NCBI GenBank assembly: GCA_963699755.1 | Contig: CAVOVB010000001.1 | Location: 1,280,001 to 1,344,000 of the forward strand | Length of the DNA: 64,000 nucleotides | Origin: an uncultured delta proteobacterium | GTDB lineage: Bacteria; Myxococcota_A; Polyangia; Polyangiales; Houyiibacteriaceae | Reading direction: 5' to 3' | Shown here: piece after piece, positions 1,592 through 46,595 of the stretch | Layout: the number at the start of each line of letters is the position of its first letter | Position numbering within the stretch: position 1 is the first letter of the stretch | Translations under genes and position numbers: made by a program | The notes under the pieces: model-generated | The model's input: the letters and a program-made list of their open reading frames with translations, nothing else | Databases searched by the model: none | What the model was told of the DNA's origin: nothing

Positions 1592-2203
1592 ATGAGAAGT
1601 CTCGCACCAGTCCTAGCCGCGAGTCTGCTGTGCCTGATGGGCGCTGCGCCAGCATCGGCCGAAAACCCGGGGCAGGAGGGTGCGGTCGTGACGGTCGACA
1701 CCCTCGGCGCGGCAGCCGACTACCCGGTGCTCACCCGCGGCCAGGTGATGCTCATCAACGCGCAGCGCCTCATCGTCACCGAGGAGCCGCTCCCGCTTGC
1801 CAAGGTCGCCGAAGCGCCGCCCGCGCCAGAAGCGATCGAGGCCGACAGACCCAGCGCGCCCTATGCCGGCGCGATTTGGGTCGCACCGCACTGGATCTAC
1901 GGTCCAACGGGCTTCTCCTGGGTCGCCGGCCGCTACGTCGCGCCGCGGGCAGGTCACGTCTTCGTCCCGCCGCGCTGGGCCTCTTTCGAGGAGCAGTACT
2001 TCTACTTCTCGGGCTTCTACGTTCCGTACGGTGTCTATGTGCGCAGCTACTTCAACCGCTACTACTACAGCGGGGTGCCCAACCGGCAGTCACGGCCCGA
2101 CCACGGTCCGTACTGGCCTATCGGCGCACCGACCCGGGCGAACAGCGCGCTGAGCAGCGCCAGCGCGCGTGACCCGTACTGGCCGATCGGCGCTCGCCGC
2201 TAG
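1592..2203 (+). CDS. Secreted YXWGXW (WXXGXW) repeat-containing protein
   Basis: Signal peptide; repeats IWVAPHW, SWVAGRY, VFVPPRW, FYFSGFY. Confidence 0.7.
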   Translation: MRSLAPVLAASLLCLMGAAPASAENPGQEGAVVTVDTLGAAADYPVLTRGQVMLINAQRLIVTEEPLPLAKVAEAPPAPEAIEADRPSAPYAGAIWVAPHWIYGPTGFSWVAGRYVAPRAGHVFVPPRWASFEEQYFYFSGFYVPYGVYVRSYFNRYYYSGVPNRQSRPDHGPYWPIGAPTRANSALSSASARDPYWPIGARR

Positions 2204-3573: not shown

Positions 3574-5252
3574 AGCACACCTCCATTGGCGTCGGGTTCG
3601 AGCCCGACCGCGCGGCGGTAGAGGAAGGCATTGGTCTGCGTCAGGGCGACCAGGAGCGCCTTGATGTTGAAGCCCGAGGCACGAAACACATCATTGAGCT
3701 GCTCGACGCTGCAGCTGTCTTCGGCCGTGACGGTTCGGTTGTATGCGAAACGGAACCACTGGGACGAGACGCACTCTCGTACTTGCGTACTCCCGGCGAG
3801 AGCGCTCGCGAGCTCGATCGCGCCGTCGTAGTCGCCATCGATGTCATCGGTCTGCACGACCTCCCCGGTCGCATCGATGTTCTTGCCGTTCTGCTGGTCA
3901 CGCCACTGCCCAATGGCGTCGTAGTGCTCGAAGATGAAGCCGATCGGGTTCATCAGGGTATGGCAGCCGGCGCAGGCTGGATTAGCGCCGATCTCCTCGA
4001 ACTGCTCCTTGGTGGTTTTGGTCGGGTCGAGCTCTGGCGGCACGATGACCAAATCGTTGGGCGGAGGCGGCAGCGTGTTGCACATCAGCTGCTCGCGCAC
4101 GAACTTTCCGCGAAAGACCGGCGAGCTCTGGTTGACGTTCGCATGCGTCGCCATGAGGCCTGCGCTCGTGAGGAAGCCCGCCCTGCGTTCCGGATCGACC
4201 TGCACCTGCCGAAACTCCGGTCCCGAGACCGATTCGAGCACGTCACCACCGTAAAAGCTCGCGAGCTCTTCGTTCATGAAGCTGTAGTCGGCGGTCAGGA
4301 GGGTTTCGAGCGAGCCGTCACCTTCGAGAATCACCTGCTCGACGAAGGTTTGAATCTCTTCCTTCCACAGCCCGCGGAGGGAGCTCTGGTAGGCGGGGTA
4401 GACCGCCGTGTCTTTGGTCACGCTGTCGAGATGGGTCAGCTGGAGCCACTGCGTGTGGAAGTTTCGGATGAGGTCGCGCGCCTTCTCGTCCTCGAGCATG
4501 CGCGTGGCCTGGGCCGCGATTTGCTCTTTCGTTCGCAGCTCGTCGGCCTCAGCCGCAGCGAAGAGCGCGTCGTCGGGCATCGTGTTCCAGAGCATGTAGG
4601 AGAGCTTGGTGGCCATCTCCCAGCTAGTAAACGGCACCACATCGCCTTCGATGGGAGTCTCCGCGCCAAGCTCGGGACGATAAAGGAAGGAAGGAGATTG
4701 CAGCATCACTTGAAGAACGACTTCGATGCCGTCTTCGAATCGCCCGAGGTCGGCGTCGGCGATCGCCCAGTCGAATACGCTCTGGAAGCGTTCGATTTCA
4801 GGCTCAGACAACGGTCGCCTGAACGCGCGCTTTCCAAAGTCCTCGATGAAGGACGAGGCGCAGGCGTCGTGGCCGTCGAGCTCCGGGTCGCAGCCGGGGA
4901 TGAGTGCGCTCATGTTGCCGACGGCCCGCGCGCTGATGTCCTCGGCGACCTTCATGTACTGCTCGATCAGCAGGTCACTGCTCGTGAGCGCGGCGGCCTG
5001 GTTGTTGAAGCCCGCGACTTCTTCTTCGGGCGGAAGCGCATCGGCCGGACTGCTGGTATCGCCGAGCAGGTCGCGGACGGTGCGGTTGTACTCGAACCGC
5101 GTTAGGCGCCGGATCGGCGTGTCGACGACGCAGAGGCTCTTGGCAACGGTATCGTTGATGGCGCGTTCGCCTTCGCCACCGATTGCACCGTTGCAGCCCG
5201 CGAGGAAAACGGCGGCGAGCATTGGATAGAATTTACTCCCTTGGGGCGGCAA
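3570..5252 (-). CDS. DUF1592-family lipoprotein (DUF1587/1595/1592/1588/1585) with c-type heme motif
   Basis: Lipobox FLAGC, RRLTRFEYNRTVRDLL, RAFRRPL, LQSPSFLYR, LSYMLWNTMPD, SPVFRGKFV, CAGCH; AAGGAG RBS before TTG. Confidence 0.85.
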   Translation of the reverse strand: MPPQGSKFYPMLAAVFLAGCNGAIGGEGERAINDTVAKSLCVVDTPIRRLTRFEYNRTVRDLLGDTSSPADALPPEEEVAGFNNQAAALTSSDLLIEQYMKVAEDISARAVGNMSALIPGCDPELDGHDACASSFIEDFGKRAFRRPLSEPEIERFQSVFDWAIADADLGRFEDGIEVVLQVMLQSPSFLYRPELGAETPIEGDVVPFTSWEMATKLSYMLWNTMPDDALFAAAEADELRTKEQIAAQATRMLEDEKARDLIRNFHTQWLQLTHLDSVTKDTAVYPAYQSSLRGLWKEEIQTFVEQVILEGDGSLETLLTADYSFMNEELASFYGGDVLESVSGPEFRQVQVDPERRAGFLTSAGLMATHANVNQSSPVFRGKFVREQLMCNTLPPPPNDLVIVPPELDPTKTTKEQFEEIGANPACAGCHTLMNPIGFIFEHYDAIGQWRDQQNGKNIDATGEVVQTDDIDGDYDGAIELASALAGSTQVRECVSSQWFRFAYNRTVTAEDSCSVEQLNDVFRASGFNIKALLVALTQTNAFLYRRAVGLEPDANGGVL

Positions 5253-5347
5253 TCTGGATGCTCCTTTAGCTGGAGCCTTCCAGGATACATCCTAAAGGGT
5301 CGTGACGCACATTCAGTGTTCAGTTGAAATCGTATGCCGTCTCACCG

Positions 5348-5385
5348 AAAAAGGGGACAGTCTCCTTTTCTGGAACTGTCCCCTT
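5348..5385 (-). terminator. Rho-independent terminator after the acs-actP-porin operon
   Basis: Perfect 11-bp inverted repeat AAGGGGACAGT (5351-5361) / ACTGTCCCCTT (5375-5385) running into a T-tract on the minus strand, 50 bp past the porin stop. Confidence 0.65.
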
Positions 5386-5435
5386 CGTTGGTTTGTGCGC
5401 TATCCCACGGACAGCCCACGGCCGCTGCCGCCTGC

Positions 5436-7046
5436 CTAGATGAACAGGTGCATTTGAAGGATGAACGAGTTGCCTTTTCGGCTTTCCACCGTCCCGTCCG
5501 GGTTGAAGATCGGGCGATTCCGGTATTCGAGGGTCACCTTGGCGTTGTGCTTCTCGATGAACATGTTCACGCCGAGACCGAAGTGAGCCATGATGTCGCT
5601 GTAGGCCTCCCACTTCGAGATCTGCGTGTTGACGTACGGCTGGAACTGGATCGACTGGCCCACCGTCCCCGGCAGCAGGAACCCGAGCTCGCTGTACGCC
5701 GTGTGGCCAGTTCCGAGAAGGGTGTACGCGTTTCCTCCTCCGTTCAAACCCGTGCCCGGGTCCGCGGGATTCATGATGCCGATGGGGCGGATGTGGTTCG
5801 GCCCGTAGTCGTTGTAGTAGTAGACGCCGTACCAGGTCGCCGCTCCTCCGTGTTCGGTCTTGAACGGCATGTCGAGGAACAAGTCCGCCCCAATGTTCAA
5901 CAAAGTCCGCTCTCGGATCGATGCCGGGTCGGCCGCATCCGCTAGGTACACGATACCCTTGGGTTGTGCGTGGAATCCAAACCCGAAGTTGAAGACCTTC
6001 TTCGATCCGATATAGGTCCCCACCGTGTACGGAAGCACGTTCGATTCGATGTCGAGAAACTGGAACTGGAAGTATCCCTGGTAGGCCCAGTTGTTCGCGG
6101 TGGCGTTGTAGTTCCCAACCGCGCCGACCTCGGGCACCGTCCCGGCGACCAACGAGACTTCGTAGGGAGTAAACGGCCTGGTGAACGCGAAACGGTAGTC
6201 GAACAGCCCGAGCTTGCCTTTGGCGTAGATCCCCAATTGGCGCGCGAACTGGTCGGTGCGCTCGATGGTGGTCCAGTTCACGATCGGTGCATCCAGGCTC
6301 ATCAAGGTGATCGTACTCGCGTTGGTCATACGTGAGACGCCGTTCCAGTACAGAAGCCCGGCGCCGACGTAGAGCTTGTTGTTCCTCGATAGCTGGAACT
6401 CGGCCCAGGCGTCGTGAAAGAAGAGCTGGGGCTTCCGAGCGTTTCGGAAGGTCTGGTTGTTGATGCCGATGTGCATCAGGAGAAACACGCGCGGGAAGAT
6501 CTGACCAAACGCCAGAAAGCGTGCGCGCCGGAGGCCGACGTCCGCATACCAGGGGTCCGCGTTCCCAAGCACCTCGGTGCCGGGGTTGAGCTGCATCGCC
6601 CGCGTCCAGACCTGCAGCCACATGGCGAGCCGGAAATACAGGGTTCCGTCGTCGTTCAAGCTCCATTGAAGCTTCTTGGCGCGGCCATCCGCCGAGACCA
6701 GGCCCACTCCAGTGCCCGGCGCTGATGTGGGCTCGGGGGCCAGCTTGCGGCCCATCAGCTGCATCTGGCGTTTGGCGTCCGCTAGCCGCTTTTCCATTTC
6801 CGCGATGGCCGCCTCGGCCTCGTCGAGCTCTTGCTCGAGGTCCTGCTCTGTCGGCTCGGCCGCTGGCTGGAACGCCTCCGCTTCCGCTGCGTCGTCCGCG
6901 TCGTCGATGGCTGTCTCCCCAGGAGCCGGTTGGGCCAAGGTTGAGGTGGGGACGAATCCCGCTAGCGCAACCCAGGCGATCGCTGTGAACCAGGCGCTCC
7001 ATGCTCGTTGCGGCCGAGGGCCGTCTCTACGTTCTTGCCTCATCAC
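5436..7046 (-). CDS. Putative outer-membrane beta-barrel porin with acidic/coiled-coil N-terminal extension
   Basis: Signal-like N-terminus, acidic coiled stretch, alternating aromatic beta-strands, LRRAR porin-like motif, C-terminus ILQMHLFI; last gene of acetate operon. Confidence 0.65.
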   Translation of the reverse strand: MMRQERRDGPRPQRAWSAWFTAIAWVALAGFVPTSTLAQPAPGETAIDDADDAAEAEAFQPAAEPTEQDLEQELDEAEAAIAEMEKRLADAKRQMQLMGRKLAPEPTSAPGTGVGLVSADGRAKKLQWSLNDDGTLYFRLAMWLQVWTRAMQLNPGTEVLGNADPWYADVGLRRARFLAFGQIFPRVFLLMHIGINNQTFRNARKPQLFFHDAWAEFQLSRNNKLYVGAGLLYWNGVSRMTNASTITLMSLDAPIVNWTTIERTDQFARQLGIYAKGKLGLFDYRFAFTRPFTPYEVSLVAGTVPEVGAVGNYNATANNWAYQGYFQFQFLDIESNVLPYTVGTYIGSKKVFNFGFGFHAQPKGIVYLADAADPASIRERTLLNIGADLFLDMPFKTEHGGAATWYGVYYYNDYGPNHIRPIGIMNPADPGTGLNGGGNAYTLLGTGHTAYSELGFLLPGTVGQSIQFQPYVNTQISKWEAYSDIMAHFGLGVNMFIEKHNAKVTLEYRNRPIFNPDGTVESRKGNSFILQMHLFI

Positions 7047-7074
7047 AACCTACCTCTCTGCTTCGAGTAAATCG

Positions 7075-8901
7075 CTAGTGCATAGCCGTTGGTGCCGACG
7101 AGCCCGCGGGGATGCGGATGTGCTCGACCATCTCCTGTACGTCCTGGGGTGGCGGCGGGGTGAAGCGGCCAACCACGAATGCCACCACGAAGTTGAGCAG
7201 CATGCCGAGCGCGCCGATCCCCTCCGGTGAGATCCCGAACCAGTATTGGTCGGGGGTGCCGCCCATGAACTTGAAGTAGATGATGTACGCTGCGGTGAAG
7301 GTGATTCCCACCAGCATGCCGCTGACCACGCCTTCTCGGTTGGCCTTCTTGGCAAAGACGCCGAGGATGATCGCCGGGAAGAACGACGAGCATGCGAGAC
7401 CGAAGGCAAAGGCGACGACTTGCGCGACGAACCCCGGTGGGTTGATGCCAAAGTAGCCGGCGATCAAGACCGCGACGCCGGCCGCGACACGCGCGGCAAG
7501 CAGCTCCTGTTTCTCCGTGATCGACGGGACAAACACGCGCTTGAGCAGGTCGTGGCTGATCGACGTGCTCACGACGAGCAACAAGCCAGCCGCCGTTGAA
7601 AGCGCAGCAGCCAAGCCGCCCGCAGCGACCAGCGCGATGACCCAGGCCGGCAGGTTTGCGATCTCCGGGTTGGCGAGGACGATGATGTCGCGGTCGACGT
7701 AGAGCTCGTTCTTGGTGTTCGGGTCAGCGTTGCTAACGACGCGTTGGCCGTGATCGCCGCGTGCCGGGCTGCCATCGGCGGCCTTGGCGAACTCGGGCTT
7801 ACCGGCGAGCGCAGCCCCTGCGACGTATTGGACCTTGCCATCGCCGTTCTTGTCTGCCCACGCGAGTAGGCCGGTGTCCTCCCAGGTCTTGAACCACTGG
7901 GGAATCGACTTCTCTCCCTCGACCTGCGCGTAGTTGGCTTCGCTGACCGTCTCAATCAGATTCGTACGTGCGAAGGCAGCGACTGCGGGAGCCGTGGTGT
8001 AGAGAAGCGCGATGAAGAAGAGTGCCCAGCCGGCGCTGAGGCGGGCATCACGAACTCTCGGCACCGTGTAGAAACGAACGATGACGTGGGGTAGGCCAGC
8101 GGTACCCGCCATGAGCGCGCCGGTGATGCACAGGACGTCCAATGTCGATTTGCTGCCCGACGTGTACTCGGCAAAACCGAGCTCCGTATTCAACTGATTG
8201 AGCTTGTCCAGTAGCTTGATCGTTTCTCCCCCTGCGACTTTCGAACCGACCGCACCGCCGAGCGACGCGCCGAAGCCAATCTGGGGAATCAGGTGATCGG
8301 TGAGCAGAATGCTGATGAAGATGGCCGGAACCAGATAGGCGAAGATCAAGACACAGTACTGGGCGGCCTGCGTGTACGTGATGCCTTTCATGCCGCCGAG
8401 AACGGCATAGAAGAAGACGATCGCCATGCCGATAGCGACGCCGACGTTGATCTCGACCTCGAGGAAGCGGCTGAAGACGACGCCCACGCCGCGCATCTGC
8501 CCGGCGACGTAAGTAAACGAAACGAACACGGCGCAGACGACCGCGACGATACGGGCACCAGTCGAGTAGTACCTGTCTCCGACGAAGTCAGGGACTGTGA
8601 ACTTGCCGAACTTGCGCAGATACGGTGCCAATAAGAGCGCGAGTAAGACATAGCCACCGGTCCAGCCCATCAGGTAGACGGCTCCGTCGTAGCCCATGAA
8701 CGAGATCAGGCCCGCCATGCTGATGAACGAGGCTGCGCTCATCCAGTCAGCGCCGGTCGCCATGCCGTTGACCACTGGGTGGATCCCTCGGCCGGCGATG
8801 TAGAAGTCACCGGTCGTGCTGGCACGCGACCAGATCGCGATGCCGATATAGAGCGCGAAGGTCCCGCCCACGATGATGAATGTCCAAGTCTGTACGTCCA
8901 T
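7075..8901 (-). CDS. actP: Cation:acetate symporter, sodium:solute symporter family (ActP-like)
   Basis: GMATGADWMSAASF, APYLRKFGKFTVPDF, GTAGLPHVIVRFYT, AAALSTAAGLLL motifs; between DUF4212 and porin. Confidence 0.88.
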   Translation of the reverse strand: MDVQTWTFIIVGGTFALYIGIAIWSRASTTGDFYIAGRGIHPVVNGMATGADWMSAASFISMAGLISFMGYDGAVYLMGWTGGYVLLALLLAPYLRKFGKFTVPDFVGDRYYSTGARIVAVVCAVFVSFTYVAGQMRGVGVVFSRFLEVEINVGVAIGMAIVFFYAVLGGMKGITYTQAAQYCVLIFAYLVPAIFISILLTDHLIPQIGFGASLGGAVGSKVAGGETIKLLDKLNQLNTELGFAEYTSGSKSTLDVLCITGALMAGTAGLPHVIVRFYTVPRVRDARLSAGWALFFIALLYTTAPAVAAFARTNLIETVSEANYAQVEGEKSIPQWFKTWEDTGLLAWADKNGDGKVQYVAGAALAGKPEFAKAADGSPARGDHGQRVVSNADPNTKNELYVDRDIIVLANPEIANLPAWVIALVAAGGLAAALSTAAGLLLVVSTSISHDLLKRVFVPSITEKQELLAARVAAGVAVLIAGYFGINPPGFVAQVVAFAFGLACSSFFPAIILGVFAKKANREGVVSGMLVGITFTAAYIIYFKFMGGTPDQYWFGISPEGIGALGMLLNFVVAFVVGRFTPPPPQDVQEMVEHIRIPAGSSAPTAMH

Positions 8902-8928
8902 GGTTCTCTCCTTTTGTGACTCGAACGA

Positions 8929-9267
8929 TCAGTCCTCGTGAACGTCAAACTCTTTGTCGAGCTTGTTCATCAACCAGGAGTAGATGAAGATCAGGGCTAC
9001 GAACACGTAGATCGAACCCTGCTGCGCAAACCAGAAACCAACCTTGAAGCCGGTGCCCGGGATGGTGAAATTGTCGAGCGCGCCCACCCAGAGAATCCCG
9101 GCGCCGTACGAGACGAGCCACCAGATAGCGAGAAATGCGAACAAGAGTCGAAGATTCCTTTTCCAGTAGCGCGTCGCGTGCTCCGCGCTGTGTGGCGCGC
9201 GGTCGTCCCTTCGTTTCGATTCGGTCGTCATCGTGTGTTCCGTTTCTCCGCCGTCGGCGGTAGTCAC
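8929..9267 (-). CDS. DUF4212 small membrane subunit of solute:sodium symporter
   Basis: YWKRNLRL...GFWFAQQGSIYVF...MNKLDKEFDVHE; directly upstream of symporter; alternative ATG at 9231. Confidence 0.88.
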   Translation of the reverse strand: MTTADGGETEHTMTTESKRRDDRAPHSAEHATRYWKRNLRLLFAFLAIWWLVSYGAGILWVGALDNFTIPGTGFKVGFWFAQQGSIYVFVALIFIYSWLMNKLDKEFDVHED

Positions 9268-11180
9268 CCCTTCTTCAACAGCGCCTCGACCACGCTTGGG
9301 TCGGCTAGGGTCGAAAGATCTCCGAGTTGGTCTCCTTCACCGGCAGCGATCTTGCGGAGGATGCGCCGCATGATCTTTCCGGAGCGGGTCTTCGGAAGGC
9401 CGGGCACGACCCGGATTTCATCCGGCGTGGCGATCGGACCGATCGCCTGGCGCACCTGCTCTTTGAGTGCGCCTTGAAGCTCGTGTGGCTCCCAGTCTCC
9501 GCCCGCGATCGGGACGACGAAGGCAAAGATGCCCTGACCTTTGATCTCGTGCGGGCAGGGAACCACCGCTGCCTCCGCGACTGCCTGGTGCGCCACGAGC
9601 GCACTTTCCACCTCGGCAGTGCCCAGACGATGGCCGGAGACATTGATCACGTCGTCAACGCGCCCCGTAATCCAGTAGTACCCATCCTCGTCGCGTCGGC
9701 AGCCGTCGCCGGTGAAGTAGTACGGTGGATACTGAGAGAAGTACGTCTCGATGAAGCGCTTGTGGTTGCCATGAATCGTACGCGCCTGGCCCGGCCATGG
9801 GTGCTTGATGCAGAGCAAACCACTGACGTCGTTCCCCTCGAGCACCTTGCCTTCTGGGTCTACGATGACCGGCTCGATGCCGAATAGCGGGAGGGTCGCC
9901 GAGCCTGGTTTGGTAGGAGTTGCGTTCGGAAGCGGGCTGATCAGGATCCCGCCGGTTTCGGTCTGCCACCAGGTGTCAACGATGGGCACTTTACCGTTGC
10001 CCACGACCTCGCTGTACCAGCGCCATACCTCGGGGTTGATTGGCTCACCAACGGTGCCCAAGACCCGCAGGGACTTGCGGCTCGAGCCCTTGACCGGCTC
10101 CGAGCCCTCGCGCATGAGGGCTCGGAGCGCGGTGGGCGAGGTGTAGAGCGTCGTCGCGCCGATGTCATCGATGACGTTCCAGTACCTACTCGCGTTGGGA
10201 TATGTGGGAACCGATTCGAACATCACCGTGGTTATGCCGTTCGCGAGCGGACCATAAATGATATAGCTGTGGCCCGTGATCCAACCGATGTCCGCTGCGC
10301 AGAAATGAATGTCATCGGGCCGAATGTCGAAGACGTACTTGAACGTCGACGCCGCGTACGTGAGGTATCCCGCGGTGGTGTGAACCAAACCCTTCGGCTT
10401 TCCAGTCGAGCCGGAGGTATAGAGAATGAAAAGCGGGTCTTCCGAAGCCATCCATTCGCTCGGGCAGGTGATGCGCTGCTCGGCCATTGCCTCGTGCATC
10501 CAGATGTCCCGGCCTTGCTCCATGGGCACTTCGGTGTCGGTGCGCTTCACGACCAAAACACTCTCGACGATGGCAAGGCCCTCGACCGCATCGTCGGTGA
10601 TCTTCTTCAGAGGGATGCGTTTCCCGCCACGCAGGCCCTCGTTTGACGTGACCACCACCTTTGCCTCCGCATCGATGATCCGGTCACGGAGCGCGTCGGC
10701 GCTGAAACCCCCGAACACAATCGAGTGAACCGCCCCGATACGGGCGCATGCAAGCATTGTGTAGGCCAGCTCGGGAATCATCGGAAGATAGATACAAACC
10801 CTGTCGCCCTTCCGGACACCCAATGATTTCAGCGCGTTGGCTACTCGACCGACGTAGGTCTTCAGGTCGCCGAAGGAGATGTGCTCGTATTCGCCGGGCT
10901 CGTCCGCGACGAAGATGATCGCGGTCTTGTTGGGGTCCTTGGCCACGTGCCGATCGATGCAGTTGACCGCCGCATTGAGTCGACCGCCTCCAAACCAGAC
11001 GAACTCCCCCGGCCCATGTTCCTCGAACACACTGTAGGACGGGTAGAACCAGTGCAGTTCCTCGCCCTGACGTTTCCAATACTCCTGGGGGTCGGTGACG
11101 CTGTCTTCGTAGAGGCTCTGGTACTCCTCCAGATCGGTGATGCGTCTTCTGTATTTGAGCGGGGGTTGTGAGAGTGTCAT
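9264..11180 (-). CDS. acs: Acetate--CoA ligase (AMP-forming)
   Basis: YTSGSTGKPKG, DTWWQTETGG, GRVDDVINVSGHRLGT, PKTRSGKIMRR; ATG at 11180 with AAGGT RBS (TTG 11186 alternative). Confidence 0.95.
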   Translation of the reverse strand: MTLSQPPLKYRRRITDLEEYQSLYEDSVTDPQEYWKRQGEELHWFYPSYSVFEEHGPGEFVWFGGGRLNAAVNCIDRHVAKDPNKTAIIFVADEPGEYEHISFGDLKTYVGRVANALKSLGVRKGDRVCIYLPMIPELAYTMLACARIGAVHSIVFGGFSADALRDRIIDAEAKVVVTSNEGLRGGKRIPLKKITDDAVEGLAIVESVLVVKRTDTEVPMEQGRDIWMHEAMAEQRITCPSEWMASEDPLFILYTSGSTGKPKGLVHTTAGYLTYAASTFKYVFDIRPDDIHFCAADIGWITGHSYIIYGPLANGITTVMFESVPTYPNASRYWNVIDDIGATTLYTSPTALRALMREGSEPVKGSSRKSLRVLGTVGEPINPEVWRWYSEVVGNGKVPIVDTWWQTETGGILISPLPNATPTKPGSATLPLFGIEPVIVDPEGKVLEGNDVSGLLCIKHPWPGQARTIHGNHKRFIETYFSQYPPYYFTGDGCRRDEDGYYWITGRVDDVINVSGHRLGTAEVESALVAHQAVAEAAVVPCPHEIKGQGIFAFVVPIAGGDWEPHELQGALKEQVRQAIGPIATPDEIRVVPGLPKTRSGKIMRRILRKIAAGEGDQLGDLSTLADPSVVEALLKKG

Positions 11181-11215
11181 CGGCAAACCTTACATTTAGG
11201 CGCACCGATTTCCAC

Positions 11216-11230
11216 GCAATACTCGTACCA
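11216..11230 (-). promoter_or_regulatory. Sigma-54 (-24/-12) promoter for the acs operon
   Basis: Minus strand TGGTACGAGTATTGC = GG-N10-GC, one mismatch to TGGCACG-N4-TTGC, 36 bp upstream of acs and next to a GAFTGA activator gene. Confidence 0.8.
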
Positions 11231-11282
11231 ACAAGGCCGATCAAGAAACCACTTTGGATCTTCGTCTAACGCGGCGCGGCAA

Positions 11283-11332
11283 GCGTTACGATTCGTAGCA
11301 GCGCGCTACAGATCGAAACGCTCTGGAAACGC
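11283..11332. promoter_or_regulatory. Putative upstream activator sites for the CbrB-like protein
   Basis: GTTAC-N5-GTAGC (11285-11299) and GCTAC-N5-GAAAC (11305-11319) 20 bp apart, plus GAAACGC repeat (11315, 11326), about -80 to -130 from the predicted start site. Confidence 0.5.
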
Positions 11333-11336
11333 GTAT

Positions 11337-12674
11337 TCACTGTCCAGGTGGGCGGGAATCGCGCCGAGGAATGCCCATGCGTTGTCGGCGTTCCCAGAGA
11401 GTCTTGCGGCTGATGCCAAGACGCTTCGCCAGCTCGGTCTCGCTCAGCTCGTCCTGATGCGAAAGGACGAATCGCTTGAGGTATGCTTCGAGGGACGCGT
11501 CGTCGCCATTGACCTCGCTCGGGATGCTATCGGACGGACGCGACGAAGGCAGTCCAAGCAGCTCCGCAGTGATTGGCCCAGACTCGTGAAGAATCACCGC
11601 GCGTTCGACGGCGTGCTGAAGCTCGCGCACGTTTCCGGGCCATCTGTACCCTCGCATCGCAATCACCGCGCCCCTGTCGAGCTCGAGCGGTTGGCGCCCG
11701 AGCTTCGTCGTGGCGCGTGCGATGAACACTTCGGCGAGCGCGGGGATATCGTCGCCACGTTCGCAAAGCGGTGGGAGCTCGATCTCGACGACCTTGATGC
11801 GGAAATACAGATCGGCCCGGAATTGCCCGTGTTCTACGAGCATTGGAAGGTTCCGATGAGTCGCCGCAACGAGCCGGATGTCGACCGACTCGGCCTTTCG
11901 CGCGCCGACGCGCCGGACCTCGCGCTGTTGAAGGATTCGCAGCAAGCGCGCCTGTGCGGCCTGGGACAACTCGCCGATCTCATCGAGGAAGAGCGTTCCG
12001 CCGTCGGCGGCATGCACCAGACCTTGCTGCCGGCTCGAAGCGCCCGTGAACGCGCCCTTCTCGTGTCCGAACAGCTCGGATTCGAGCAGCGTTTCTGGAA
12101 TCGACGCGCAGTTCACCGGGACGAATGCACCCGTGCGGGCGCTTTGGTTGTGCACCGCGCGCGCGATCAGCTCTTTGCCCGTGCCCGACTCACCGAGGAT
12201 CAACACCGTTGCCTCGGTCGGCGCGACTTTGCGCGCCCAACGCAAGGTTTCCTGCATTGGGCTCGATTGGGTTGCAACGATGTCGTAGGGATCTGCCTTT
12301 GCGCTCACGTCGCCCAATGCGAGCGCGGCACGCTGGCGGAGCACGCGCTCGACGGCGGCGCTCAACTCGTCTGGCTCGAAGGGCTTCGAAAGATAGTCGG
12401 CCGCACCCCGTTTCATCGCGTCCACCGCCGCGCTCACCGAACCATAGGCCGTCATCACGATGACCGGGACCTGACCTACGCGTTCAAGCAAGACGTCACC
12501 CGCCTCACCGGCCAGCCTCACGTCGGTGATCACCAAGTCGAAGCACTCGGGGCGCTCTCTTTCGGCCGCCGCAACACTCGCGACGGCGATGAGCTCGTGC
12601 CCATCCCGTTTGAGGATACGCTCGATCTCCGCGCGGATGACCCGCTCATCCTCCACCAAAAGGATCTTCGCCAC
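11337..12674 (-). CDS. cbrB: Sigma-54-dependent response regulator, CbrB-like (REC-AAA-HTH)
   Basis: REC (DLVITDVRL), GESGTGKE, GAFTGA, LFLDEIG, WPGNVREL; C-terminus LEAYLKRFVLSHQDELSETELAKRLGISRKTLWERRQRMGIPR resembles the CbrB tail as I recall it. Confidence 0.8.
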   Translation of the reverse strand: MAKILLVEDERVIRAEIERILKRDGHELIAVASVAAAERERPECFDLVITDVRLAGEAGDVLLERVGQVPVIVMTAYGSVSAAVDAMKRGAADYLSKPFEPDELSAAVERVLRQRAALALGDVSAKADPYDIVATQSSPMQETLRWARKVAPTEATVLILGESGTGKELIARAVHNQSARTGAFVPVNCASIPETLLESELFGHEKGAFTGASSRQQGLVHAADGGTLFLDEIGELSQAAQARLLRILQQREVRRVGARKAESVDIRLVAATHRNLPMLVEHGQFRADLYFRIKVVEIELPPLCERGDDIPALAEVFIARATTKLGRQPLELDRGAVIAMRGYRWPGNVRELQHAVERAVILHESGPITAELLGLPSSRPSDSIPSEVNGDDASLEAYLKRFVLSHQDELSETELAKRLGISRKTLWERRQRMGIPRRDSRPPGQ

Positions 12675-12714
12675 CGGTGATTAGTACCAAAGGAGTGCAC
12701 TGTCCTTCAATCCC

Positions 12715-15582
12715 TCAGTTTTCATAGGCTTGGAGGGCGATCGTGAACCGGCTTCCGCCGGCCCGACGTGGCTCGTAACGGAGTGAGCCCCCAAAGCGCT
12801 CCACGATCTGGCGAGACACCGAAAGACCCAGCCCCGTGCCCTGGCCGTCCGGCTTCGTAGTAAAAAAGGGCTCGAAAACGCGGGAAGAAAGCTCTTCGGG
12901 GATGCCCGGGCCCTCGTCGTCCACCTCGATGAGCACCGAACCGTTGTCGACGCGCGTCCGCACGTACACGGTTGCGCCGGACGAGCAGGCCTGGCGCGCG
13001 TTGTTCAACAGGTTTACAAGGACCTGAGTTAACCCATCAGGGCTTGCCATCGCAGGTGCGTCGACGGAGAGATCCAGGTCGATTCGACAGCCCTCGGTCT
13101 CGAGCTTCGCGAGCTCCGCGGCGTTGCGGATCACTCCAGCGACGGGGATAGCCTGTAGCTCGACCGGGGTCTCATCCCGCCGGCTGAAGGTGAGCAGGCT
13201 CTGCACGATCCCGTGAATGCGCTGTGCCTCATCCACGATGATTCCGAGTCGATCGGCGGCGTCGGCCGCGCCCGGGTCCGCTGCGAGGTTCTTGGCAACC
13301 ATCAAGATTCCGGTCAGCGGGTTGCCCACTTCGTGGGCGACGCCCGAGGCCAGGGTGCCAATCGAGGAGAGGCGATCCTTGTGTGCCACGTGCCGTTCGA
13401 GCTGCCGGAGCGCAGTCACGTCTTCGACGACGAACACTCGACCCTCCTCGGACTCGCCGGGGATCGTCGCGGTTTGCGCACGCAGCTCGATCTTTCCGTC
13501 TCCCAGGTCGTACTCACGTTCGACGACCGAGCCCGTTGGCTGACGGGCGAGCTCGTCGAACAGCGGCCACCAAGGGTCTGGGATGTCATGCATCGCGTGA
13601 CCGCAAATGTCGTCTTCATCCAGGCCCGAAATGCGCTCGAGCTGTGCGTTCCAGATGACCACCTCTTCGTGGTCATCGACCGTACAGACGCCCACTGGCA
13701 GCTCCGACATCAGCCGTGAAAGGTAGCGGCGCGCCGCCTGTGCGGGTGAGTTTCGCTGCGACCCTACGGCGTAGCGCGAGTCGAGCTCTCTGAAAGCGCG
13801 CAGCCGTTCCGCGAGCGCATCTGCACGAACCGGTCGGCCACCTTGGACGTAGGTCCGGGCCGCCAGAGGGCCTATGCGCTCGCTGAGGCGTCCTTCGAGC
13901 TCGGTGATCAACCGAAGGAGCTCCGGCCGGTCCCGCGGCGGCCAGAAGACGTCGGCCGCGGCCGCGGCCTGGTAGATCTCCTCGATTGCGGTTCTCTTTC
14001 CGACGTACGAGGTCAAGCGTTCCTGAAGCGCCTCGGCGGAATCGGGGACTTGCAAGAGCCGAGTCACGCGCGGTTCACGACAGGCCTCCGCGGCGTTGCG
14101 CTCCTCAGCAGAGCGTGTGGTGAGCAGGGAGACGCCCATGAAGACGAACGCATGCGCCGTGAAGCTCAGCCAGATCGCCGGTCCTCTGGCGCCCGGGTCG
14201 GTGAAACCAAAGAGCGCGTAAAGGCTCGACGCGTCGAACTCGACGCCGAACAATGGTGATGCGGTCAGCAGCGCCCAAGAGGTCGCGCCCACGAATAACC
14301 CCGCTAGCACTCCGGCCCGTGTCGCGCGCCGCCAAAAGAGCGCGCCGAGCAATCCGGGTAGCAGATGAGTGACCGCGACGAACGAGGCGAGCCCGAGATC
14401 GACGAGCGAGCGCGTCCGCGGAAGGGTGAAATGAATGAGCAAGCCGGCGACGACGACCCCGATGATGGTCGAGCGGCGAAAGACCGCCCAACGCGTCAGC
14501 AGCGACTCAGGACTCGGCCCGAACCGCGGTACGAGATAGTTCGAAACCATGCCACTGAGGGCGATCGAAGACACCAAGATCATCGCACTTGCGGCGGACA
14601 CGGCTCCGAGGAATGCAAGCGTTTGGAGAGCTGGAGAGCTTTGAACCGCGACGAGAACATAGACGTCGGGTCGGACGCCCGGCGCTGCGAGGTCGCGGCC
14701 GGCCCAGTAGAGGATCGGCACCGGTAGGTTGATCGCGAATAGGTAGAGTGGCAGGGCCCATCGGGCGGTTTTGAGGCTTCGCGGGCCGGGTCGCTGAACA
14801 AACGCGACGAAGAACTGACGAGGAAGCAGGAACGCCGCGCAAAACGTGACGAACACAAGTGCGATCCAGGAGTCGCCCATCACCGGGCTGACCATGTTCT
14901 CGACGAGATTAGGCTGCGCTCGCAGATACTCGTTGAGGTCGCGGAACCCGCCAAAGACGGCGAACAAGGCCGCACCGCCGACCACAAGCAAAGCGATGAG
15001 CTTGAACACGCTCTCGAACGCCAGCGTTGCGATGAGCCCGGGCCGATGCGCGCGACCGTCGGCGTAACGCACGCCGAGCGTCACGGCAAATGCGCTCAAC
15101 AAGAGCGCGTAGACGGAGCCGAGCTCTTCGCTTGGTGCCTCGCCGACCAGAATCGCGGCCCCGTCCGCAACCGCACGGAGCTGCAGCGCGATATAGGGCA
15201 GCAGACCTGCGACCATGAAAAGCGAAACCGCAGCGCCCAGGGTGCGGCTTTGGTATCGAAAGGCGAAGACATCAGCGATGCTCCCGAGCCGATAACGGTC
15301 GACGAGCTCCGCCACTGGCGCCCAGAGAAAGGGGATCGCGATGCAGGACAGGGTGACGCCGAAGTAGATCGCCAAGAAGTCGTAGCCTTCGGTCGCAGCG
15401 AACCCGACGCTTCCGAACAAGGTCCAGGTCGTGGCGTAGACGCCGAGAGCGAGCGCGTAGCTGAAACGGTTGCGCCCCAGGCGGCCCCAGCGTGGCGAGC
15501 GTTCGACGACCTCTGAGCCGAGGATGTAGAGGCCGAGCAGTGCGACCGCGAGGAAGAAGAGGATGAAGTGATTAAGCTGCAT
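12715..15582 (-). CDS. cbrA: SLC5 transporter-STAC-PAS-histidine kinase fusion, CbrA-like
   Basis: N-terminal multi-TM SLC5 region (YALALGVYATTWTLFGSVG, LPYIALQLRAV, LLPRQF), STAC-like helical linker, PAS (LPVGVCTVD..VVIWN), H-box GVAHEVGNPL, N/G boxes; no C-terminal receiver. Confidence 0.8.
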   Translation of the reverse strand: MQLNHFILFFLAVALLGLYILGSEVVERSPRWGRLGRNRFSYALALGVYATTWTLFGSVGFAATEGYDFLAIYFGVTLSCIAIPFLWAPVAELVDRYRLGSIADVFAFRYQSRTLGAAVSLFMVAGLLPYIALQLRAVADGAAILVGEAPSEELGSVYALLLSAFAVTLGVRYADGRAHRPGLIATLAFESVFKLIALLVVGGAALFAVFGGFRDLNEYLRAQPNLVENMVSPVMGDSWIALVFVTFCAAFLLPRQFFVAFVQRPGPRSLKTARWALPLYLFAINLPVPILYWAGRDLAAPGVRPDVYVLVAVQSSPALQTLAFLGAVSAASAMILVSSIALSGMVSNYLVPRFGPSPESLLTRWAVFRRSTIIGVVVAGLLIHFTLPRTRSLVDLGLASFVAVTHLLPGLLGALFWRRATRAGVLAGLFVGATSWALLTASPLFGVEFDASSLYALFGFTDPGARGPAIWLSFTAHAFVFMGVSLLTTRSAEERNAAEACREPRVTRLLQVPDSAEALQERLTSYVGKRTAIEEIYQAAAAADVFWPPRDRPELLRLITELEGRLSERIGPLAARTYVQGGRPVRADALAERLRAFRELDSRYAVGSQRNSPAQAARRYLSRLMSELPVGVCTVDDHEEVVIWNAQLERISGLDEDDICGHAMHDIPDPWWPLFDELARQPTGSVVEREYDLGDGKIELRAQTATIPGESEEGRVFVVEDVTALRQLERHVAHKDRLSSIGTLASGVAHEVGNPLTGILMVAKNLAADPGAADAADRLGIIVDEAQRIHGIVQSLLTFSRRDETPVELQAIPVAGVIRNAAELAKLETEGCRIDLDLSVDAPAMASPDGLTQVLVNLLNNARQACSSGATVYVRTRVDNGSVLIEVDDEGPGIPEELSSRVFEPFFTTKPDGQGTGLGLSVSRQIVERFGGSLRYEPRRAGGSRFTIALQAYEN

Positions 15583-15739
15583 GGTCGGTGCGATGAATCA
15601 GCGCCACGACCGCGATCATCCCCAGCCAGAATGCAAAGGGAGACCACCAGGTCTGAAGCCAGACAGCCCGAACCGGGGTCGCGATGAGCACGATCGCAAC
15701 CGCGAACAGAAGCAGCGCACGCTCTTGCTCCCTGTTCAT
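15572..15739 (-). CDS. cbrX: 55-aa two-TM small protein, CbrX-like
   Basis: MNREQERALLLFAVAIVLIATPVRAVWLQTWWSPFAFWLGMIAVVALIHRTDHAA; ATG abuts the prpE stop, stop overlaps the cbrA start by 11 nt; absent from ORF track. Confidence 0.75.
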   Translation of the reverse strand: MNREQERALLLFAVAIVLIATPVRAVWLQTWWSPFAFWLGMIAVVALIHRTDHAA

Positions 15740-17626
15740 TTATGCGTAGCCGATGGCCTGCAGGCGTTCGGCGATTTCGTCGAGGATGACCGGGTCGTCG
15801 ATCGTTGCCGGCATCTTCCATTGCGCCCCGTCCGCGATCTTCTTCATCGTGCCGCGCAGAATCTTGCCTGAACGAGTCTTGGGTAGGCGCTGCACGACGA
15901 TCGCGGTCTTAAAAGCCGCAACCGGGCCAATCTCGTCGCGGACCATCTGGATGACCTCGGACACGATCTCGTGCTCGGGGCGATCGACGCCCGCATTGAG
16001 TACCAAGAGGCCAAGTGGGATCTCGCCCTTGAGCTGATCGGCGACGCCCATGACCGCGCATTCGGCCACGTCTGCGTGCGCCGAAATGACTTCTTCCATG
16101 CCGCCGGTCGATAGGCGATGTCCGGCAACGTTGATGATGTCGTCGGTCCGGGACATCACGTAGACGTAGCCATCGTCATCGATGAAGCCCGCGTCCGCGG
16201 TCTTGTAGTAGCCGGGAAACTCGGTCATGTACGAGCTCACGAAGCGGTCGTCGTCGTTCCAAAGCGTCGGCAGCGATCCTGGAGGAAGCGGAAGCTTGAC
16301 CACCAACGCCCCTGTCTTCCCGCGCGGAAGCTCGTGACAACCCTCGTCGACGACGCGAACGTCCCAGCCGGGCACGGCAATCGTCGGCGACCCGTGCTTG
16401 ATCGGAAGCTGCTCGATTCCTAGGCAATTCGCACAGATTGCCCAGCCGGTTTCGGTTTGCCACCAATGATCGATGACCGGTACGCCAAGCTTTGCTTCCG
16501 CCCATTGCAAGGTATCGGGGTCAGACCGCTCGCCGGCTAAGAACAAGGCGCGCAGCGTGCTCGTGTCGTAGTCGCCGAGCAGCTCTCCGTTGGGGTCTTC
16601 CTTCTTGATCGCACGAAACGCGGTCGGAGCGGTGAAGAGGCAGTTGACCCCATGGTCCTCGATGACTCGCCAGAATGCACCGGCATCCGGCGTCCCCACC
16701 GGCTTCCCCTCGTAGAGGATCGTCGTGGTTCCGTTCAGAAGCGGCCCGTAAACGATGTAGGAATGGCCGACGACCCAGCCCACGTCTGAGGCAGCCCAGT
16801 ACACTTCACCAGGCTGAACACCATAGACATTGCGCATCGACCACCGAAGCGCGACCGCATGACCTCCGTTGTCACGAACCACGCCTTTGGGGATGCCAGT
16901 GGTTCCGGAGGTGTACAGGATATACAGGGGATCGGTGGCGGCAACGGGCACGCAATCGTGTGGCTTGGCTGCTGCCACCGCGTCTTGCCAGGATGTGTCA
17001 CGGCCCTCGGTCAACTCACACTCGCAGCTTTCGCGCTGCCGGATGATGCATCTCTCGGGCTTGTGCTTCGATAGCTCGATCGCCTGATCGAGCAAGGGCT
17101 TGTATTCGATGACGCGCATGCCTTCGATGCCGCAAGACGCGGAAACGATGATCTTTGGCTCGGCATCGTCGATGCGGGTTGCCAGCTCCTGCGGGGCGAA
17201 TCCACCGAACACCACCGAGTGCACTGCACCTAGCCGCGCGCAGGCTAGCATCGCGATGACCGCCTCGGGGATCATCGGCATGTAGAGCAGGATCCGGTCG
17301 CCCTTGACGACGCCTTGCGATGCCAGAGCGCCTGCGAAGATGGCGACCTCCTTTCGGAGCTGACGATAGGTGTAGGTTCTTCGCTGGCGTGTGACCGCGC
17401 TGTCGTAGATGAGGGCCGCTTGATTCCCGCGCTTCTCGACGTGCCGGTCCAGGGCGTTGTAACAGGTGTTGAGTTGCGCTCCGGTGAACCAACGATAGAA
17501 CGGAGGGTTCGAGCTATCGAGGACCTTGTCCCAGCGCTTGATCCAGTCAATTCCCTCTGCCTGCTCTGCCCAAAAACCTTCTGGGTCTTCGAGCGAACGA
17601 CGACGCATTTCCAAAGTTGCCGACAT
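15740..17626 (-). CDS. prpE: Propionyl-CoA synthetase (acyl-CoA synthetase short-chain family)
   Basis: YTSGTTGIPKGVVRDNGGH, DHWWQTETGW, SRTDDIINVAGHRLSTG, PKTRSGKILRG, MPATIDDP. Confidence 0.88.
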   Translation of the reverse strand: MSATLEMRRRSLEDPEGFWAEQAEGIDWIKRWDKVLDSSNPPFYRWFTGAQLNTCYNALDRHVEKRGNQAALIYDSAVTRQRRTYTYRQLRKEVAIFAGALASQGVVKGDRILLYMPMIPEAVIAMLACARLGAVHSVVFGGFAPQELATRIDDAEPKIIVSASCGIEGMRVIEYKPLLDQAIELSKHKPERCIIRQRESCECELTEGRDTSWQDAVAAAKPHDCVPVAATDPLYILYTSGTTGIPKGVVRDNGGHAVALRWSMRNVYGVQPGEVYWAASDVGWVVGHSYIVYGPLLNGTTTILYEGKPVGTPDAGAFWRVIEDHGVNCLFTAPTAFRAIKKEDPNGELLGDYDTSTLRALFLAGERSDPDTLQWAEAKLGVPVIDHWWQTETGWAICANCLGIEQLPIKHGSPTIAVPGWDVRVVDEGCHELPRGKTGALVVKLPLPPGSLPTLWNDDDRFVSSYMTEFPGYYKTADAGFIDDDGYVYVMSRTDDIINVAGHRLSTGGMEEVISAHADVAECAVMGVADQLKGEIPLGLLVLNAGVDRPEHEIVSEVIQMVRDEIGPVAAFKTAIVVQRLPKTRSGKILRGTMKKIADGAQWKMPATIDDPVILDEIAERLQAIGYA

Positions 17627-17754
17627 GATGAAGCTCTCCGGCGCGTTACAATACTGCGGCGCTCCGTCGAAAGCGAGCGTCTTCGAACGAAGAGAGCGCC
17701 CCTGGGGTTGACTTCGCGCGTCAGCTAGTCAGTGTTTCCGGAGGAGACTCGTGA

Positions 17755-18609
17755 ATGAAGTCTGGAATTTCTTGCTGCTCCCGCATGTTCGCATTCGCTT
17801 TCGTGTTCGGTCTTGGATTCTCGCTCGTTTCCTGCAAGGCGGATCAGCTCAGCGGCCTCGGCGCCGAGATTGTTCTGCTCTACGACGAGCCCCTAGGTTG
17901 CGAGAACCTCGGCGAGGTCATCGGGCGAGGCGGCGGCCTGACGGGAGCCTACTCCAAGCCATCCATCAATGAGGAGTCCGCGGAGAACAACGCCCGGAAT
18001 CAGGCCGCCGAAAGAGGCGCAACCCATCTCTTGTTGCGTGCGGAGGAAGTCGCTCAGGGCGATGGCCATCAGCCGGACGAGAAAGACACGGAGCCTGAAT
18101 TGGCCCATGGGTACGGCACGGGCTCCAACGTCACGGTCTCGGGAACGGCGTTCAAGTGCCCTCCAGGGGCGGCTCCAAAGACGAGCGCGATGCAGATCGA
18201 GCGGGGGACCGCCCTCGTCGAAATTCCTGCGCCGACGTCGATCTCGGTGGCTCCCCTCGGACCGCTCAAGAGGGTGATCGTCTTCCATCGATCTCCGCTT
18301 CCATCGGGGGGCGGGATGGGTGAAACCGAACAACTCAAGGTCGAGGACCCAGCGGAGATCCAGCAGGTTGTCGATTCGTTGCAAGAGCTGGCTTTGGATC
18401 CGATGAAGTTCATTCCTACACATCGCGTGGAGCTCGTGGGTGAGCTGGGTGTTCAATCGCTGCTCTATGGATTTGGGTATCTGCAGTACGCGGGCGCAGT
18501 CTACCGACTCACGACCGCTGACTTCGAGCTCGTCTTGCAGCTGAGGGAAGCGCCGCCGCCGGAGCTCGAGCCGCGGCCACCCATGGTGGAAGACTCGGCG
18601 GGGCCGTAG
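17755..18609 (+). CDS. DUF4156-like lipoprotein with extra C-terminal domain
   Basis: GGAGGAG RBS, lipobox LVSC, CENLGEV...NNARNQAAERGATH...GTAFKC. Confidence 0.6.
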   Translation: MKSGISCCSRMFAFAFVFGLGFSLVSCKADQLSGLGAEIVLLYDEPLGCENLGEVIGRGGGLTGAYSKPSINEESAENNARNQAAERGATHLLLRAEEVAQGDGHQPDEKDTEPELAHGYGTGSNVTVSGTAFKCPPGAAPKTSAMQIERGTALVEIPAPTSISVAPLGPLKRVIVFHRSPLPSGGGMGETEQLKVEDPAEIQQVVDSLQELALDPMKFIPTHRVELVGELGVQSLLYGFGYLQYAGAVYRLTTADFELVLQLREAPPPELEPRPPMVEDSAGP

Positions 18610-41249: not shown

Positions 41250-41843
41250 ATGAGCACAAGCCGTCTTGCATGCATGCTCCTCGCAGCTCTCGTGCTCTCT
41301 TGTGCGCAGGATGACGGCCCGGTTCTGGTGGATGCGCAGTGGAACCTGACCTGCCCGTCCGGCGGTGAGATCGATTGCGCGGCACCCGCCGAGACTTGCC
41401 TCGGCGATTCGGGCCAACGCGAGATCGTAGGTGAGCATCGGCAAGTTGCTTGCACCGGTGATCCAATGGTCGTGATCTGCGAAGCGATCCAGCGGTCCGA
41501 CGGAACGAGGGTCCTTTACCTCGAAGCCAACATCAGCGAAGAGTTCGCCTTCGAGCTCCGCGGGGCGACCGTCGATGTCGGAAATGGCTCGATGGCACCC
41601 ACCGCTTGCAACGTCACCATCATCGAAGACCAGGTCCCTTACGACGTCGGCGACTGCGGGCAAGATCCGCCCTCGATCGCGCAGCCCTGCCAACTCTCGA
41701 ACATCGAGATCTCGGGTAACGAGTTGGTCTTCAACCTCGAGTGCGACGCATTGCTGAGCAGCACGACGGGCGCCGGCTTCGACGTAGGCGCAGTCGGCGG
41801 CGGCCCGACGACGATCCGCTTCGCCAATTGCACTGGCTTCTAG
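41250..41843 (+). CDS. Cysteine-rich lipoprotein of unknown function
   Basis: Lipobox LVLSC plus 10 further Cys; CTAG stop overlap with spoVR. Confidence 0.65.
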
Positions 41844-43378: not shown

Positions 43379-43381
43379 GCG

Positions 43382-44494: not shown

Positions 44495-44497
44495 CCT

Positions 44498-46543: not shown

Positions 46544-46595
46544 GTGCGAAGTCCTCCTTGTCGAGCAGGGTAGCACCAACCCCGATCCTTGTTAA

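Follow-up and report, generated by a model that had tools for sequence, protein, structure and literature searches.

CbrAB, a sensor kinase paired with a sigma-54 activator, is treated in published accounts as exclusive to the Pseudomonadaceae or as known there alone, and its activating signal as unknown. What, then, are a kinase and an activator of this kind doing in a 64,000-nucleotide stretch of DNA from an uncultured member of the Myxococcota (contig CAVOVB010000001.1, positions 1,280,001 to 1,344,000; the window), right beside genes for the uptake and activation of acetate? The answer we favor, with a probability of roughly 0.7, is that CbrX, CbrA and CbrB serve a single sigma-54 operon here as its dedicated switch, the operon being made up of acs and the genes for a DUF4212 protein, a symporter and a porin, and that the signal is probably acetate, or else a short-chain carboxylate or acyl-CoA related to it. 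CbrA is mentioned in passing for Ca. Thalassolituus (PMC11290528), so that presence beyond the Pseudomonadaceae is not wholly unrecorded. Our literature search, with subscription journals outside its scope, returned no CbrAB ortholog controlling acs and no CbrAB in Myxococcota. The STAC survey of Korycinski et al. 2015 may already list such kinases.

Orthologs of CbrX, CbrA and CbrB

The gene block is real. The members listed in an earlier note on this DNA were all found, co-directional on the minus strand, in the order ligase (PrpE-like), 55-residue open reading frame (ORF), kinase, activator, acs, DUF4212 gene, symporter and porin, with a sigma-54 site before acs; the terminator that the note had also named is on the same strand. 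Its guess of a probable myxobacterium agrees with a Polyangiales host, as judged from the names of close kinase homologs ("Polyangiales bacterium", "Myxococcales bacterium").

The small ORF begins right behind the ligase stop codon and overlaps the kinase start by 11 nt. A hidden Markov model built from 84 CbrX sequences, all gammaproteobacterial, finds the window peptide at E 5e-10, and the next best of 76145 ORFs in the genome scores 0.86; HHalign matches the peptide to CbrX at 95-97%, and its sole PDB match is chain X of 10ED, which is CbrX (E 0.2). The kinase, the only SLC5-kinase of the genome, ends after its CA domain and has no receiver. In the PDB it is matched best by the SLC5-STAC structure of CbrA (10ED chain A, residues 34-585), and alignment with Pseudomonas fildesensis CbrA gives 35% identity across 921 columns. 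Pfam detects neither SLC5 nor STAC in this protein, and both assignments rest on the match to 10ED chain A and on a predicted four-helix bundle, which a structure model (predicted local distance difference test score 73) places at residues 516-580, ahead of the PAS domain and the kinase core. Among the Foldseek matches listed for this model are PAS-kinases and no SLC5-STAC structure. The phosphoacceptor candidate His750 is present, and K194 at the Na2 site corresponds to K196 of Pseudomonas CbrA. The activator is 50% identical to Pseudomonas CbrB with the helix-turn-helix (HTH) included, the HTH itself being nearly identical, and a tree that includes 11 of the genome's 22 paralogs puts it in the CbrB clade with support 100.

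In three trees the kinase groups in the CbrA clade, to the exclusion of CrbS, with a Shimodaira-Hasegawa-like approximate likelihood-ratio support (SH-aLRT) of 100. These trees have 74 rows of the N-terminal part, 38 rows at full length under a mixture model, and 27 rows; the rows were picked by hand from about 130 kinases, most congeners being omitted, "CrbS-type" is a label given from size and architecture, and RpuS/RpuR and PrlS/PrlR are absent by name. Forcing the myxococcotal kinases and the CrbS-type hybrids into one clade is rejected by the approximately unbiased (AU) test (p-AU 7e-9; 27 rows, LG+G4). By profile and phylogeny the three regulatory genes encode orthologs of CbrX, CbrA and CbrB, and the "CbrAB hardware" that the earlier note had recognized is borne out.

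The likeness to CbrX-CbrA-CbrB of Pseudomonas and Azotobacter (PDB 10ED; PMC13488458, PMC8871633) extends to the gene order, the peptide-kinase overlap, the missing receiver, the K196 equivalent, the HTH, the GTTAC/GTAAC half-site and a sigma-54 promoter right behind the activator gene. The systems differ in host and in what this promoter leads into, which is crcZ in Pseudomonas and acs here. CrbS/CrbR (MxtR/ErdR) of Vibrio, Pseudomonas and Sinorhizobium (PMC5715377, PMC5436829) shares with the window the SLC5-STAC-PAS kinase family and an output of acs plus acetate permease, for which the evidence here is genomic. However, CrbS is a hybrid kinase whose receiver lies at the C-terminus, and it goes with a LuxR-type partner, a sigma-70 promoter and the ACTU motif; phylogeny excludes the window kinase from this group. 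No CbrX-like ORF was found ahead of any of nine CrbS-type genes. RpuS/RpuR and PrlS/PrlR of Alphaproteobacteria (PMC9100948, PMC7918813) resemble the window in that an SLC5/STAC kinase controls a monocarboxylate permease (for RpuSR the pyruvate permease MctP), but they too are hybrid kinases with LuxR partners.

Predicted activator sites and promoter before acs

The acs gene starts about 155 nt past the activator gene, and the promoter elements lie in that gap: two palindromes, which the earlier note had overlooked, and a sigma-54 site downstream of them (Table 1). A third conserved block could possibly be an extra subsite or a small hairpin. The genome has rpoN and three HU/IHF-family genes.

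The consensus GTTAC-N5-GTAAC was derived from the window locus and other loci. Allowing at most one mismatch, it has 16 matches in the 5.35-Mb genome, both strands counted, and a single one, that before acs, is both paired in tandem and followed by a sigma-54 site. A search for a larger regulon found no second target in the genome under the motif used; for Pseudomonas CbrB, by contrast, at least 61 targets are reported (PMC6296734). Among 20000 dinucleotide shuffles of positions 11187-11336, the palindrome appeared alone in 94 and the strict sigma-54 site alone in 6, and the two appeared jointly in none.

The half-site at the acs promoter equals the published CbrB subsite TGTTAC/GTAACA (PMC8871633), and the distance from GTAAC to GTAAC is 20 nt here versus 21-23 nt in four Pseudomonas-type loci. 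Sites of Pseudomonas CbrB have the form TGTTAC-N12-14-GTAACA-N15-19-GTAACA, whereas the left halves here sit as N5 palindromes in a compact tandem, an arrangement that offers a testable explanation for the odd shape of the Pseudomonas sites. The acs operon is likely a direct output of the activator.

Losses of the cassette within the genus

The genus of the window provides a natural deletion series. The kinase is present in 20 of 36 congeners, and gene order is collinear at all 21 genus loci examined, ten of them complete from prpE to porin (one reaching the porin start only) and the rest cut by contig or region ends; at locus L113 no prpE was seen. In congeners whose fetched DNA includes both the activator and the start of acs, the palindrome is always present (16 of 16) and the strict sigma-54 site nearly always (15 of 16). 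The exception, a single case (L109, genome G026), has an activator whose GAFTGA has decayed to AAPTGA and a promoter with an altered -12 element, the palindromes being retained.

Sixteen congeners lack the kinase; 15 of these have no activator C-terminus and one has a 25-residue stub. A close acs is retained in 14 of them, and 13 acs upstream regions were fetched, none of which carries the intact pair of palindrome and sigma-54 site (sigma-54 status in these 13 was judged by eye). One has palindromes only, with an altered -12 element and beside an activator stub, another has a sigma-54 site only, and in four acs has been relocated behind the prpE promoter. The symporter follows the same division: 18 of the 20 genomes that have the kinase carry it, versus 3 of the 16 that lack the kinase. 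Across these genomes, activator and promoter sites are co-inherited. The regulatory cassette shows repeated, independent-looking losses (L241-L253, congeners G012-G034), and stubs of peptide, kinase, activator or ligase are left in several.

The pairing beyond the genus

At least 18 of 401 Myxococcota genomes drawn matched, a floor set by scoring three candidates per genome: 11 belong to this genus, five are CbrA-type from five other families, and two are not CbrA-type. A CbrA-type kinase is found in at least 6 of the 255 genera drawn. Linkage to acs is seen at four of the five loci from other families, in varied orders and orientations (one divergent with the same permease and porin, one with the permease first, two with a different permease of the sodium/solute symporter (SSS) family), and tandem palindromes with a sigma-54 site face acetate genes in three of the five. 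The fifth locus, L134 (G336), is truncated and has no acetate gene in 9 kb; its CbrA-type gene stops past the STAC region (604 aa) and is followed by an activator without HTH, as in a decaying or split locus. A long run of short GAGACC/GAGGCC-type repeats lies between activator and predicted promoter at L133:9518-9900.

In Gammaproteobacteria, 400 of 401 genomes drawn were scored and all 43 full CbrA-type places were fetched; leaving out three that fall with the Pseudomonadales and adding L001 gives 41 non-Pseudomonadales loci. Twenty-eight of them follow dksA/gluQ as in Pseudomonas, and pcnB follows at none. Acetate genes are present at 26 and acs itself at 24. The full promoter signature occurs at 11, ten of which face genes of an acetate cluster, in some cases 1-3 kb away from the activator; elsewhere it was found at none of the 17 CrbS-type and related loci, at none of 5 Pseudomonas-type loci and at 3 of 41 other Pseudomonadales loci. 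A cNMP-CBS-DUF294 gene, another feature of gammaproteobacterial clusters that is shared with CrbS/CrbR, was confirmed as the first gene of one acetate cluster. Judged from these draws, the pairing of CbrAB with acetate genes is widespread in Myxococcota and Gammaproteobacteria. The sigma-54 wiring that had been read from the window alone gains support from the genome-unique combination of palindrome pair and sigma-54 site, from its co-inheritance with the activator and from its persistence through rearrangement. We would predict this form of acetate-scavenging regulation in uncultured myxobacteria and in many other Gammaproteobacteria.

Two variants stand beside this pattern. At L001, L172, L178, L179 and L183 the activator gene directly precedes acs, with HTH and receiver intact and with GAFTGA and Walker B decayed (Walker A too in two); no sigma-54 site was found at these five loci, whose activators are possibly sigma-54-independent regulators of acs. 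A third SLC5-kinase group (L192-L199), sister to the CbrA clade, consists of non-hybrid proteins of about 900-950 aa, and in all eight a two-helix peptide of a different kind lies upstream; a lone receiver gene is often nearby, and two of these loci lie beside acetate genes. A plasmid search gave distant SLC5 kinases only. One contig scan was swamped by a generic kinase motif, the SLC5 part being matched at 5 of 80 loci.

A proposed mechanism and its signal

We propose that CbrX packs on the SLC5 domain of the kinase and that the kinase would autophosphorylate His750 and pass the phosphate to Asp51 of the activator, dimers of which would bind the two palindromes and open the sigma-54 promoter 69 nt downstream. 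A single transcript would then run from acs to the porin gene and end at the terminator hairpin. The acid would be brought in by porin and symporter and activated by Acs. The PrpE-like ligase likely shares a transcript with the sensor genes, made from a promoter of its own; it may provide basal activation of C3 acids and, more speculatively, could make an acyl-CoA or acyl-AMP sensed by the PAS domain. The comparative evidence strongly supports the regulation; the acid signal we infer.

Histidine is contacted in Pseudomonas CbrA by Y51, S53, W55, A56, F71, C74, Y75, F248 and F406 (10ED; PMC13488458). The window kinase keeps Y51, W55, F71, Y75 and F406, plus K196 (Pseudomonas numbering), and differs at four positions, having T51, T54, I72 and T246 in place of S53, A56, S/C74 and F248. 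Position 53 is Ser in 5/5 Pseudomonas-type kinases and 35/41 other Pseudomonadales; it is Thr in 21/21 of this genus, 5/5 other Myxococcota, 40/41 other gammaproteobacterial kinases and 17/17 outgroup kinases. Position 248 is Phe in 5/5 and 37/41 of the same two groups and small in all others (one gap), and positions 56 and 74 show the same split. At all four positions the window matches the acetate-linked CrbS-type kinases and the other Gammaproteobacteria, and since this state is common to the outgroups, it is likely ancestral. A stripped-down CbrAB, with one predicted target, a clean palindromic site and a pocket resembling that of acetate-linked kinases, would be a simple system in which to seek the ligand of the transceptor class.

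The signal is the weakest step of the model, because Pseudomonas CbrA can signal without its SLC5 domain or with a swapped one (PMC5715377, PMC8871633), so that the pocket residues bear on what is bound or transported and not necessarily on what is sensed. This leaves room for an unlikely alternative with the same wiring and another signal: the PAS domain of the kinase would read a general intracellular state, such as carbon limitation, energy or the CoA pool (a proposal also made for Pseudomonas CbrA), with the acetate operon as a starvation-scavenging output. A chimera of CrbS SLC5 and CbrA kinase that acts as CbrA fits this alternative, as does the still unsettled signal of MxtR/CrbS, for which acyl-CoA pools or energetics are candidates (bioRxiv 10.64898/2026.09.07.749794). 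CbrA-type loci without acetate genes, and a promoter hit that faces another gene, point the same way. The single predicted target in the whole genome is however what is expected of a specific system, the pocket matches that of acetate-linked CrbS-type kinases, and short-chain fatty acids are said to shift the stability of an MxtR ortholog (cited in bioRxiv 10.64898/2026.09.07.749794).

Besides the dispensable SLC5 domain, several observations count against a dedicated acetate switch. The motif was partly derived from loci on which it was later counted, congeners are not independent of one another, and some absences among them may stem from incomplete assemblies. Fifteen of the 41 gammaproteobacterial loci have no acetate gene in the DNA fetched, which reaches 12 kb or more downstream at 10 of them and is a short contig at the other 5, and tandem palindromes are present at just 15 of the 26 that do. 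Four loci (L142, L144, L155, L165) have an intact GAFTGA and an adjacent acs with no palindrome. At L168 one of the 11 promoter hits, upstream of the kinase, faces a divergent gene of 465 aa that has no relation to acetate, an alternative output. Searches of the window genome turned up methylmalonyl-CoA mutase and neither isocitrate lyase nor PrpD; growth on acetate as sole carbon source is thus not established.

Ancestry and the small RNA of the Pseudomonadales

If the dedicated acetate switch is the right reading, is it the older or the younger form of CbrAB? With Pseudomonas CbrA as the query at E 1e-60, 241 of 301 Pseudomonadales genomes match, CrbS-type hits included; 150 places were listed, mostly full length, and 40 of these on long contigs across the ranking were fetched, which with L182 makes 41 loci. 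There pcnB follows cbrB in 37, acs lies within about 15 kb in 19, and a sigma-54 site sits right behind cbrB in most. The DNA behind cbrB has a sense-strand excess of AANAANAA motifs, typically 3-9 versus 0-2 antisense; the count is 0-1 in other Gammaproteobacteria, and the motif is absent behind the activator at 17 of 17 genus loci. Rfam reports CrcZ in 1 of 7 tested Pseudomonadales loci, and in 2 of 7 loci in another run. The sigma-54 sites and A-rich motif counts suggest CrcZ-like RNAs across the Pseudomonadales. In the 600 nt past cbrB of L201-L240, a sigma-54 site and A-rich sense-strand repeats occupy the cbrB-pcnB gap, as candidate CrcZ-like RNAs below the Rfam cut-off. In the window genome Hfq was not found by a search whose control worked, nor was CrcZ, for which the control gave no signal anywhere either.

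The best trees place the Pseudomonadales inside acetate-linked lineages, with the myxococcotal clade either sister to the Gammaproteobacteria (support 96, 27-row tree) or without a resolved position (38-row tree). A tree with Pseudomonadales as the first CbrA branch survives the AU test, at a borderline p-AU of 0.053. Acetate control is probably the ancestral job of CbrAB, and the CrcZ-type small RNA an innovation of the Pseudomonadales. The window suggests a route by which a local uptake switch may become a global catabolite-repression hub, and we offer a fuller version of it tentatively, as somewhat short of an even bet. CbrXAB would have begun as a short-chain carboxylate uptake switch, which it would still be in Myxococcota and many Gammaproteobacteria, and the global regulator of Pseudomonas would be derived. 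The crcZ promoter would descend from an acetate-operon promoter driving an A-rich leader, which turned into a decoy RNA once pcnB-folK-panBC(-pgi) lay between cbrB and acs; CrbS/CrbR would have taken over acetate, and the SLC5 pocket would have been reshaped to hold histidine. On this view the "non-palindromic" CbrB sites would be what decay has left of tandem palindromes, and the signal of CbrA would most likely be related to acetate, acyl-CoA or CoA.

The earlier note had read the locus as a mosaic of CbrAB hardware and a CrbSR-type output. On that reading a myxobacterium would have taken up a CbrAB-crcZ module of Pseudomonas type, which later came to control an acetate regulon of CrbSR type. 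We consider this improbable, and as a recent event it is largely refuted: no part comes from CrbS/CrbR, acetate genes accompany CbrAB at most loci outside the Pseudomonadales (4/5 other Myxococcota, 26/41 Gammaproteobacteria), pcnB follows at 0/41 of the gammaproteobacterial loci, the pocket state is shared with outgroups, and neither Hfq nor CrcZ turned up in the host. The patchy presence in Myxococcota does suggest transfer, and the borderline tree leaves the Pseudomonadales formally eligible as the first branch. The E. coli order dksA-gluQ-pcnB-folK-pan would also suggest an old pcnB block at this address. Recent transfer from Pseudomonas itself was rejected, the myxococcotal proteins forming their own deep clade that is not nested in the Pseudomonadales. 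That the linkage is incidental, with another sigma-54 activator driving acs and the CbrB ortholog acting elsewhere or not at all, is a very slim prospect even with 22 other AAA activator-like ORFs in the genome and binding at these sites predicted only, since the sites disappear where the activator is lost, carry the half-site of a protein with a nearly identical HTH, and track acetate genes through rearrangements in two phyla.

Genes of the operon and its surroundings

The features of the locus are collected in Table 1. The symporter, which the earlier note had called actP, belongs to the VC_2705 family; assignment as ActP is ruled out by a TIGR02711 score of 122.6 against a cut-off of 1099. 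The predicted porin has no Pfam match of its own and a weak match, below the cut-off, to the ExtI model, and among its Atlas neighbors (0.97) PF07396 is found on just 11-14% of cluster members; it travels with the acetate operon in two other families.

Table 1. Features of the CbrXAB-acetate locus (positions in the window)
Feature	Position	Strand	Basis
PrpE-like short-chain acyl-CoA ligase, 628 aa	15740..17626	-	first gene of predicted sensor operon
CbrX ortholog, 55-aa two-helix membrane peptide	15572..15739	-	CbrX profile match; only PDB match 10ed_X
CbrA-type kinase SLC5-STAC-PAS-DHp-CA, 955 aa	12715..15582	-	10ed_A E 5e-94; CbrA clade
CbrB-type sigma-54 activator REC-AAA-HTH, 445 aa	11337..12674	-	Asp51, Walker A/B, intact GAFTGA, CbrB-type HTH
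Predicted activator site I, imperfect palindrome GTTTC-N5-GTAGC	11304..11320	-	conserved in genus alignment; 2 mismatches to GTTAC-N5-GTAAC
Predicted activator site II, GCTAC-N5-GTAAC	11284..11300	-	20 nt after site I, 69 nt before -24 element; 16/16 congeners with activator
Third conserved block ending in GTTAG half-site	11266..11281	-	genus alignment, 17 sequences
Predicted sigma-54 promoter TGGTAC-N5-TTGC	11215..11231	-	-24 hexamer invariant in 17/17 aligned; strict site 15/16 congeners
Acetyl-CoA synthetase Acs	9264..11180	-	TIGR02188 967.5 bits vs cut-off 725
DUF4212 small subunit of symporter	8929..9267	-	PF13937 E 9e-29; TIGR03647 above cut-off
VC_2705-family sodium/solute (SSS) symporter, predicted acetate (monocarboxylate) permease	7075..8901	-	TIGR03648 849 bits vs cut-off 321
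Predicted outer-membrane porin, OprO/OprP-like	5436..7046	-	Atlas feature matches 0.97
Predicted intrinsic terminator	5348..5385	-	GC-rich hairpin + U-run, -30.6 kcal/mol, z -5.6, 0/200 shuffles

The ligase scores below the cut-off of both PrpE models, which are its best models (TIGR02316, 717 vs 827 bits; NF007815, 771 vs 955 bits). Its best PDB match is 5gxd_A (E 6e-286), presumably the Roseobacter-clade PrpE that acts on acrylate and propionate. Upstream of prpE there is no palindrome with up to two mismatches and no sigma-54 site, and the link to the locus is seen in this genus only; prpE was rejected as a direct target of the activator, and the ligase is predicted to be a genus-level passenger. 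Of the acetate/propionate wiring put forward for the locus, the acetate part stands with the acs operon; the propionate part is weaker, its gene lying upstream in the sensor operon.

A pattern scan of positions 5000-18000 found no sigma-70-like site. The terminator falls just beyond 5436..17626, the range that the earlier note had considered. In RNA runs X1-X3, 5-7% of words were present, as contigs of relatives or other organisms, with patchy coverage of the region that is uninformative on strand, start or level. Near-identical activator paralogs lie on two contigs (C7:269820-271328 and C1:1731537-1733009), which fits the 9% contamination reported for the assembly or strain duplication. Directly past the terminator, at 2200-5252, is a pair of genes of DUF1592/DUF1588 type and DUF1552, with four further such pairs on contig C1, and the PrkA, DUF444 and SpoVR trio at 41840-46579 of the window is an ordinary conserved cluster.

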